A stretch of 64,000 nucleotides of DNA from Escherichia coli (GTDB lineage Bacteria > Pseudomonadota > Gammaproteobacteria > Enterobacterales > Enterobacteriaceae), in assembly GCF_044324875.1 (NCBI RefSeq), contig NZ_CP172185.1. One strand, written 5' to 3'. The notes beneath the pieces are model-generated. The model was given only the letters and a program-made list of their open reading frames with translations. It ran no database searches and was not told the DNA's origin. Positions 58,335-60,304 of the stretch are shown here, piece by piece. How positions within the stretch are numbered: the stretch's first letter is position 1; every line of letters starts with the position of its first letter. Both the position numbers and the translations under genes were made by a program.

Positions 58335-58523
58335 TTTTTACCTGAGGGGGAGTTTATCCCCCTTAATAATCAGGAGTTTTTATGAAATCAGTGGTGAATG
58401 ATACTGATGGTATCGTGCGCGTTGCCCAACGAGTCATTCCTGAAATTAAACATCAGGATGAGGTGCGGGTAAAAATTGCCAGCTCGGGATTATGTGGTTC
58501 CGATTTACGGTAATGACTCCAAC

Positions 58524-59027
58524 TTATTGATAGTGTTTTATGTTCAGATAATGCCCGATGACTTTGTCATGCAGCTCCACCGATTTTGAGAACGACAGCG
58601 ACTTCCGTCCCAGCCGTGCCAGGTGCTGCCTCAGATTCAGGTTATGCCGCTCAATTCGCTGCGTATATCGCTTGCTGATTACGTGCAGCTTTCCCTTCAG
58701 GCGGGATTCATACAGTGGCCAGCCATCCGTCATCCATATCACCACGTCAAAGGGTGACAGCAGGCTCATAAGACGCCCCAGCGTCGCCATAGTGCGTTCA
58801 CCGAATACGTGCGCAACAACCGTCTTCCGGAGCCTGTCATACGCGTAAAACAGCCAGCGCTGGCGCGATTTAGCCCCGACATAGCCCCACTGTTCGTCCA
58901 TTTCCGCGCAGACGATGACGTCACTGCCCGGCTGTATGCGCGAGGTTACCGACTGCGGCCTGAGTTTTTTAAGTGACGTAAAATCGTGTTGAGGCCAACG
59001 CCCATAATGCGGGCAGTTGCCCGGCAT
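58524..59027 (-). CDS. insB: IS1 protein InsB
   Basis: 167-aa InsB sequence. Confidence 0.95.
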
Positions 59028-59221
59028 CCAACGCCATTCATGGCCATATCAATGATTTTCTGGTGCGTACCGGGTTGAGAAGCGGTGTAAGTGAACTGCA
59101 GTTGCCATGTTTTACGGCAGTGAGAGCAGAGATAGCGCTGATGTCCGGCGGTGCTTTTGCCGTTACGCACCACCCCGTCAGTAGCTGAACAGGAGGGACA
59201 GCTGATAGAAACAGAAGCCAC
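58946..59221 (-). CDS. insA: IS1 protein InsA
   Basis: 91-aa InsA with zinc-finger CPSC...CSHC. Confidence 0.95.
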
Positions 59222-60304
59222 TGGAGCACCTCAAAAACACCATCATACACTAAATCAGTAAGTTGGCAGCATCACCCCGATTTACCCAGAATATTTAAAA
59301 ATGGTGCACATTATTATCCAATAACGTTAGGCCATGAATTTAGCGGCTATATTGATGCTGTGGGATCCGGTGTTGATGATTTACATCCTGGCGATGCGGT
59401 TGCCTGTGTGCCGTTATTACCCTGTTTTACTTGTCCAGAGTGTTTGAAAGGGTTTTATTCCCAGTGCGCAAGATATGATTTTATTGGCTCGCGGCGTGAT
59501 GGTGGATTTGCTGAGTATATTGTCGTTAACCGAAAAAATGTCTTTGCTCTACCCACGGATATGCCTATTGAGGATGGGGCTTTTATTGAACCGATTACCG
59601 TTGGCCTGCATGCTTTCCATTTAGCGCAAGGTTGTGAGAATAAAAACGTTATTATTATTGGTGCCGGAACCATTGGCCTGCTGGCCATTCAGTGCGCTGT
59701 CGCGCTGGGAGCAAAGAGTGTGACGGCTATCGACATTAGCTCAGAAAAACTGGCACTGGCAAAATCTTTCGGTGCGATGCAAACATTTAACAGCCTTGAA
59801 ATGAGCGCGCCGCAAATGCAGAGCGTTTTACGCGAACTGCGTTTTAATCAGCTTATCCTCGAGACGGCTGGCGTCCCGCAAACCGTCGAACTGGCGGTAG
59901 AGATTGCCGGGCCTCATGCCCAGCTGGCGCTGGTGGGCACGTTGCATCAGGATCTGCATTTAACATCGGCAACGTTTGGCAAAATATTGCGTAAAGAGCT
60001 GACGGTTATCGGCAGTTGGATGAACTACTCCAGCCCTTGGCCGGGGCAGGAGTGGGAAACGGCGTGCCGGTTGCTGACAGAACGTAAGTTAAGCCTGGAG
60101 CCATTAATCGCTTACCGTGGAAGCTTTGAAAGCTTCGCCCAGGCGGTGCGTGACATCGCTCGTAATGCTATGCCGGGCAAAGTGTTGCTCATTCCCTGAA
60201 ACCGCGGGCCAGCGTGATGCTGGCCCGGTATTGTGCAAAACAGATCATTCACCAATGGTCCCCCTTCGTTTACACTAGCCACAATTGAATATGGGTAAAT
60301 GACG

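Follow-up and report, generated by a model that had tools for sequence, protein, structure and literature searches.

In the window, a stretch of 64,000 nucleotides of Escherichia coli DNA, the genes are arranged as fbaB-gatYZABCD-gatR-yegS, an order collinear with that of strain 1190 and of K-12, in which gatD ends the operon and lies 5′ of gatR. On the plus strand, gatY (54053 to 54907), gatA (56208 to 56660), gatB (56691 to 56975), and gatC (56979 to 58334) are full length and encode proteins 100% identical to those of strain 1190; the gatC product matches the EIIC-GAT model at 709.8 bits. gatZ (54936 to 56198, plus strand) is likewise full length, with the single change H389R relative to strain 1190, and this GatZ allele was found on at least 1,000 contigs. 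The gatC-gatD and gatD-gatR intergenic regions are the same as in strain 1190. The coding sequence of gatD, which runs from an ATG at 58382 to a TGA at 60197 to 60199, is interrupted at codon 43 by a copy of the insertion sequence IS1 (58509 to 59276, minus strand).

The repressor gene that follows, gatR (60305 to 61078, plus strand), is an uninterrupted 257-codon open reading frame (ORF) for a DeoR/GlpR-family protein, full length and 3′ of gatD, as an earlier note on this DNA had held. That note had also stated that K-12 gatR carries an insertion sequence, which is correct: in MG1655, gatR is split by IS3E, and gatC is a pseudogene as well. The predicted GatR is 99.6% identical to the common allele WP_001295426.1, which recurs in many E. 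coli strains, and the sole substitution is T202I. In relatives, the Pfam domains HTH_DeoR and DeoRC are annotated in the predicted gatR products. NCBIfam holds no GatR-specific model, and the best match there was to AgaR, at 230.9 bits, below the 260-bit cut-off. Residue 202 falls in the C-terminal (effector-binding) domain and is threonine in all seven other E. coli gatR loci compared; the exact I202 allele was found on 188 contigs. Given this substitution, gatR can be called intact at the level of the predicted ORF only. E. coli strains normally have an intact gatR, which is not a notable feature of this locus.

The element in gatD is 768 bp long, with its transposase genes antisense to gatD, and the position and the canonical ends given in the earlier note both held. 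Its termini, GGTAATGACTCC... and ...GGCAGCATCACC, form 23-nt imperfect inverted repeats that a repeat finder scored as 78% complementary. The insA-proximal repeat, conventionally IRL, occupies 59254 to 59276, and the other repeat occupies 58509 to 58531. A length of ~768 bp together with 23-bp terminal repeats (GGTAATGAC... and ...CATCACC) places the element in the IS1 family, and both ends match those of K-12 IS1A exactly. Over its whole length it is nearly identical to the IS1A copy of MG1655 at 19796 to 20563 (3 mismatches in 768 positions), and it is 99.6 to 99.7% identical to IS1 copies in other E. coli genomes that PGAP labels "IS1-like element IS1A family."

Both transposase frames lie on the minus strand. 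insA (58946 to 59221) starts at GTG and encodes 91 amino acids identical to K-12 InsA1, with matches to the NCBIfam transpos_IS1 model and to the IS1 zinc-binding domain. The insB frame (58524 to 59027) is joined to insA through a −1 frameshift at the A6C motif (TTAAAAAAC). This motif is intact, and the −1 shift yields an open 232-amino-acid frame for the InsAB′ transposase, the InsB part of which scores 145.6 bits against transpos_IS1 (cut-off, 100). Judged by the intactness of these features, the copy is functional-looking. It is the only copy of IS1 in the 64-kb window. GC content around the insertion site is 0.40, the 17th percentile within gatD, so that the local composition weakly supports the AT-rich target preference of IS1.

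The same 9 bp, CCGATTTAC, abut the element on both sides, at 58500 to 58508 and at 59277 to 59285. This is the perfect flanking duplication that the earlier note had described, and it has the length of 9 bp (occasionally 8 bp) that marks a simple IS1 insertion; a 9-bp match at these fixed positions would arise by chance with a probability of ~4^-9, or ~4e-6. In the gene, CCGATTTAC corresponds to gatD nucleotides 119 to 127, within codons 40 to 43. The 5′ fragment of gatD (58382 to 58508, plus strand) retains codons 1 to 42 and the first base of codon 43. Its ORF (58382 to 58513) reads MKSV...GSDL and then runs into IS1, where one arginine codon is followed by a stop, giving a product of 43 amino acids whose 42 native residues are 100% identical to residues 1 to 42 of strain 1190 GatD. 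The 3′ fragment (59277 to 60199, plus strand) begins with the duplicated codons 40 to 43 and continues through codons 44 to 346 and the stop; its translation is 100% identical to residues 41 to 346 of strain 1190 GatD. The first in-frame start in this fragment is a GTG at 59360 (codon 68), which opens a 279-codon ORF, the largest left of the gene. The 279-amino-acid product scores 579 bits against the galactitol-1-phosphate 5-dehydrogenase model NF007642 of NCBIfam (cut-off, 550). It lacks residues 1 to 67 and fits only positions 68 to 344 of the 347-position GatD profile.

When IS1 and one copy of CCGATTTAC were removed in silico, an open gatD of 1,041 nt and 346 codons was restored, with no further lesion. 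This agrees with the claim that gatD is split after about codon 42 and that its halves are otherwise in frame. About 25 complete E. coli genomes, among them strain 1190, ST2747, and O166:H15 strains, have a gatD whose DNA is 100% identical to the restored gene, the product of which aligns over residues 1 to 346 with the E. coli galactitol-1-phosphate 5-dehydrogenase of PDB entry 4A2C (E = 8.9e-230).

The interrupted allele is not confined to the window. Databases list the 43-amino-acid junction product as an E. coli protein (WP_395762591.1; XJR47280.1), and it occurs on nine contigs, the longest of 5.75 Mb. An origin in Shigella was considered and set aside, since the records of the proteins give Escherichia coli as their source. 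In five independent assemblies (GCA_958308375.1, SRR21142071, SRR21141939, ERR4843518, and SRR8502404) the left junction is identical to that in the window; these assemblies are 99.96 to 100% identical to the window upstream of it, and their contigs stop 28 to 125 nt into IS1. The exact left junction had no match among the GTDB representative genomes, and this insertion site in gatD was present in 0 of 5,426 complete E. coli genomes.

An empty site was found in three near-isogenic genomes, SRR31139369 (L029), GCA_002467655.1 (L030), and GCA_044684255.1 (L021), each with an uninterrupted 346-codon gatD and a single CCGATTTAC. On the right flank, the sequence matches the window without a difference for 4.0 kb in L029 and L030 and for 4.7 kb in L021. 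On the left flank, 3 single-nucleotide polymorphisms (SNPs) separate L029 from the window in 16.5 kb, 1 separates L030 in 12.6 kb, and 2 separate L021 in 2.1 kb. Over 4 to 16.5 kb on each flank, these relatives show 99.98 to 100% identity to the window, and near-isogenic relatives differ from it by 0 to 3 SNPs over 16 to 20 kb. YegS had been considered as a lineage marker and was set aside, its allele being far too common (29,782 index blocks), though looking it up yielded L021. The earlier note had proposed a comparison with the gat loci of related strains, and these genomes supply it; together with the natural gatD allele obtained by excision in silico, they bear out the claim that IS1 inactivates the gene. 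That note had also named an assembly error at the IS1 junctions as what would overturn its reading, an objection that the left junction shared by five independent assemblies largely excludes. Because the empty site persists in relatives and the same left junction recurs in five assemblies, this is a genuine insertion rather than an assembly artifact.

Neighboring markers help to place the insertion in time. The nucleoside permease gene yegT (51242 to 52516, minus strand) carries, relative to strain 1190, a premature stop, G169*, at about 52010 to 52012, which leaves ORFs of 168 and 229 amino acids and is common to more than 100 contigs of the lineage. A single-base difference at 52276, within this pseudogene, is private to the window when compared with two genomes that carry the insertion (L002 and L003) and with the empty-site genomes L029 and L030. 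L029 and L030 share the yegT nonsense mutation; since this lesion thus also occurs in relatives with intact gatD, it is older than the IS1 insertion. The 24 contigs with the yegT nonsense mutation that were read fell into two displayed gene layouts, and in each of these gatD was intact at 346 amino acids. Contig counts were 9 for the junction product, 136 for the yegT nonsense mutation, and 188 for GatR I202, and from the last of these against the first we conclude that GatR T202I predates the insertion. That neither half of gatD has gained a substitution indicates that the insertion is recent. By these sequence comparisons, the insertion is genuine, simple, and recent, without an adjacent deletion, and is restricted to one sublineage within a wider clone.

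The best explanation of the locus, to which we assign a probability of roughly 0.93, is that an IS1A-type element inserted into codons 40 to 43 of gatD in a recent ancestor and inactivated GatD. The InsAB′ transposase would have made a 9-bp staggered cut at CCGATTTAC, and gap repair would then have duplicated those 9 bp, with flanking DNA neither lost nor rearranged. A staggered cut followed by gap repair, leaving a target duplication, is the established mechanism of IS1. GatD is cut to 42 native residues, and codon 68 is the earliest in-frame start in the 3′ part of the gene. The missing segment holds the GLC38GSD and GH59E60 motifs, which we take, from what is known of zinc-dependent MDR enzymes, to contain the catalytic-zinc ligands, and because that segment is missing no active GatD is expected.

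The loss of active galactitol-1-phosphate 5-dehydrogenase would block the pathway between galactitol-1-phosphate and tagatose-6-phosphate, and the cell should be galactitol (dulcitol) nonfermenting, a sound prediction from the genotype that agrees with the galactitol-negative or altered phenotype expected in the earlier note. Since GatABC is intact, galactitol could still be taken up and phosphorylated. Exposure to galactitol may then lead to a build-up of galactitol-1-phosphate and to growth inhibition, unless induction of the operon needs a product downstream of GatD. Classical studies of gatD and mtlD mutants, which lack a hexitol-phosphate dehydrogenase, suggest that the sugar phosphate, once accumulated, inhibits growth; the strain is possibly galactitol sensitive, and whether it is so depends on the identity of the GatR inducer. 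A literature search on the galactitol sensitivity of gatD mutants and on the zinc ligands of GatD returned nothing usable. The operon ends with gatD, and gatR has a promoter region of its own whose sequence is the same as in relatives, so the insertion is not expected to be polar on gatR.

The insertion could also have been phenotypically silent, a step of neutral decay in a gat pathway that was already nonfunctional or noninducible, for example through a GatR T202I super-repressor or a defective GatZ H389R. GatR I202 is absent from the seven other E. coli loci compared and, on 188 contigs against 9, is older than the insertion; the neighboring yegT carries a nonsense mutation in this lineage; and about 40% of E. 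coli strains are dulcitol negative (PMC10132054). Apart from gatD, however, every gat ORF keeps its full length and differs little from its counterpart in strains with the common alleles, GatZ H389R and GatR T202I are single conservative-to-moderate changes, and the GatZ allele is carried on at least 1,000 contigs. On balance, we regard a silent insertion as unlikely.

A more novel reading builds on the insertion as an inactivating event and is also doubtful: that the sublineage stably keeps a knockout of gatD only, with GatABC and the repressor intact, and hence is galactitol sensitive and not merely galactitol negative. If this were so, persistence of the allele across several isolates would imply a niche without galactitol, a GatR inducer formed after the GatD step, or a noninducible T202I GatR. 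Were GatR induced only by a metabolite beyond GatD, a gatD mutant could not induce its own poisoning, and the physiological inducer would thereby be identified.

A regulatory effect of the insertion, over and above the disruption of gatD, is improbable. In that scenario, an outward-facing hybrid promoter transcribes the 3′ fragment of gatD and reads through into gatR, raising the level of the repressor. A promoter-like site of the form TTGGCA-18-CAGAAT does lie at 59263 to 59292 on the plus strand, with its −35 element in the IS1 end and its −10 element in gatD, and the sequence from there to gatR showed no terminator-like site. However, the site agrees with the consensus at only 9 of 12 positions, the sequence between gatD and gatR is the same as in relatives, and gatR keeps its own upstream sequence. 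The hybrid site is probably not significant, since promoter-like sites are as frequent in shuffled sequence (3 found versus 2.9 expected).

We give almost no weight to the idea that IS1 was misplaced into gatD during repeat resolution, the true chromosome having an intact gene: E. coli genomes carry IS1 in many copies (a median of 10 matching places in each), short-read contigs break at it, and a search with the 279-amino-acid C-terminal ORF found no independent contig spanning the right junction, but a mis-join would not produce a target-site duplication, the 9-bp duplication is perfect and sits exactly at the IS1 ends, and different sequencing runs gave the same left junction in five independent assemblies, each reaching 28 to 125 nt into IS1. 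A metagenome contig that starts near gatD nucleotide 120 (L013) was considered as a witness for the right junction and rejected, as it differs from the window by 5 SNPs, is noisy over its first 25 nt, and belongs to a different lineage.

Insertion events at the gat loci were surveyed in the 5,426 complete E. coli genomes. An IS1 within ~1 kb of the gatC-gatD junction, in the same orientation as in the window, was found in 53 of them, a lower bound in that the search joins pieces on one strand only and copies in the opposite orientation missed the 80% coverage list. An apparent orientation bias of IS1 in gatD and gatR, with all copies oriented as here, was rejected as an ascertainment artifact for the same reason. 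The inspected loci held at least five independent IS1 sites in gatD and two in gatR, and IS1 also stood at the borders of gatZ-gatC deletions.

The gatD insertions lie at nucleotides ~152 to 160 in OXA-181, 281 to 289 in ET791, 345 to 352 in ST540, 482 to 490 in SY033 (a 93%-identical IS1 variant), and 530 to 538 in the group of H32, Ec-2977, and OW967966. Like the allele described here, these combine IS1 in gatD with 8- to 9-bp duplications and an intact adjoining gatR, but their sites differ from nucleotides 119 to 127, and several of the strains have extra gat lesions (a gatZ frameshift or a second IS1). E. coli ST540 (NZ_CP007265.1) offers an example of stepwise decay: its gat operon contains two IS1 copies in opposite orientation (384 to 1151 and 2935 to 3702 of the locus), one bordering a gatA-gatB deletion and the other in gatD, in addition to a gatZ frameshift.

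Other strains resemble the window in having an insertion sequence at the gat locus and differ in what it strikes. In BL21 and other B strains, IS1 lies in gatR at nucleotides 226 to 234, and in Ec-U5 at nucleotides 285 to 294. These insertions, like the IS3E of K-12, hit the repressor, whereas the one described here disrupts a catabolic enzyme and is expected to abolish the pathway but to leave its regulation in place. The insertion in K-12 gatR renders the operon constitutive (PMC5850726, PMC10878103). In SLK172 and a group of chicken isolates, IS1 at the gat locus has likewise inactivated the pathway, but there it borders a deletion from gatZ nucleotide 759 to gatC nucleotide 570 and has no target duplication, in contrast to the simple insertion with retained flanks in the window.

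Loss of gat function is well documented. When K-12 colonizes the mouse gut, gat-negative mutants undergo rapid sweeps, with insertions of IS elements making up 79% of the events (Barroso-Batista et al. 2014, PMC3945185). The mutations reported fall in gatA, gatC, gatZ, and the gatY regulatory region, and gatD is not among the targets (PMC3945185, PMC5850726). Selection in the gut relies on constitutive expression from a broken gatR; when gatR was restored, gatR knockouts arose instead and gat-negative mutants did not (Sousa et al. 2017, PMC5850726). The gut-evolved mutants thus share with the present allele the loss of galactitol catabolism, mostly by IS insertion, but they arose in a gatR-defective, constitutive background, whereas the present insertion struck gatD in a strain with an intact gatR. 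Outside the laboratory, dulcitol is fermented by only about 60% of E. coli strains, and inactivation of gat genes has left entire lineages negative (PMC10132054).

Against this background, gatD::IS1 is a new allele of a known, recurrent class, the IS-mediated inactivation of a dispensable catabolic gene. It is only mildly unusual, as a gatD-specific knockout with uptake and repressor intact, a combination absent from the gut-selected alleles. A galactitol-absent niche together with drift is the simplest reading of its presence. Drift is equally likely, and an adaptive reading of gatD::IS1 with an intact gatR is not supported, because gut-selected gat-negative mutants needed a broken gatR and spared gatD. 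The allele adds one more independent event to those that make the gat locus a recurrent IS target in nature, as in gut-evolution experiments. It can also serve as a clean marker, open to dating, for a single sublineage of an E. coli clone whose chromosome is large (5.75 Mb on record), and the predicted dulcitol-negative profile could serve in typing. The insertion strain and its near-isogenic empty-site relatives form a natural pair in which the toxicity of galactitol-1-phosphate and the identity of the GatR inducer could be addressed.

Elsewhere in the window, positions 1 to 11738 hold the tail end of a lambdoid prophage integrated in mlrA (yehV), adjoining btsS. Its genes include those for TipJ (6 to 2855), a collagen-like tail fiber (4117 to 5445), and a YadA-like protein (9941 to 10375). 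The prophage-mlrA junction lies at about 11739 to 11806, and only about the first 68 nt of mlrA are left; we take mlrA (yehV) to be the integration site of the Stx1 prophage of O157:H7. At most 58% of this 12-kb prophage stretch is covered by any complete E. coli genome. An IS66-family element lies in the prophage tail region on the minus strand (6287 to 8620), with tnpC at 6287 to 7825, tnpB at 7875 to 8222, and tnpA at 8219 to 8620; related places in other genomes are annotated as ISEc8.

The gat operon shares 99.98% identity with the strain 1190 operon, whereas the adjoining segment from 30000 to 52000, which contains metG, apbC, yehABCD, and DUF4132 genes, reaches 97.8% identity in its best match among the 5,426 complete E. 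coli genomes. This contrast points to a background that is mosaic and recombinant, in a lineage with few representatives among complete genomes.
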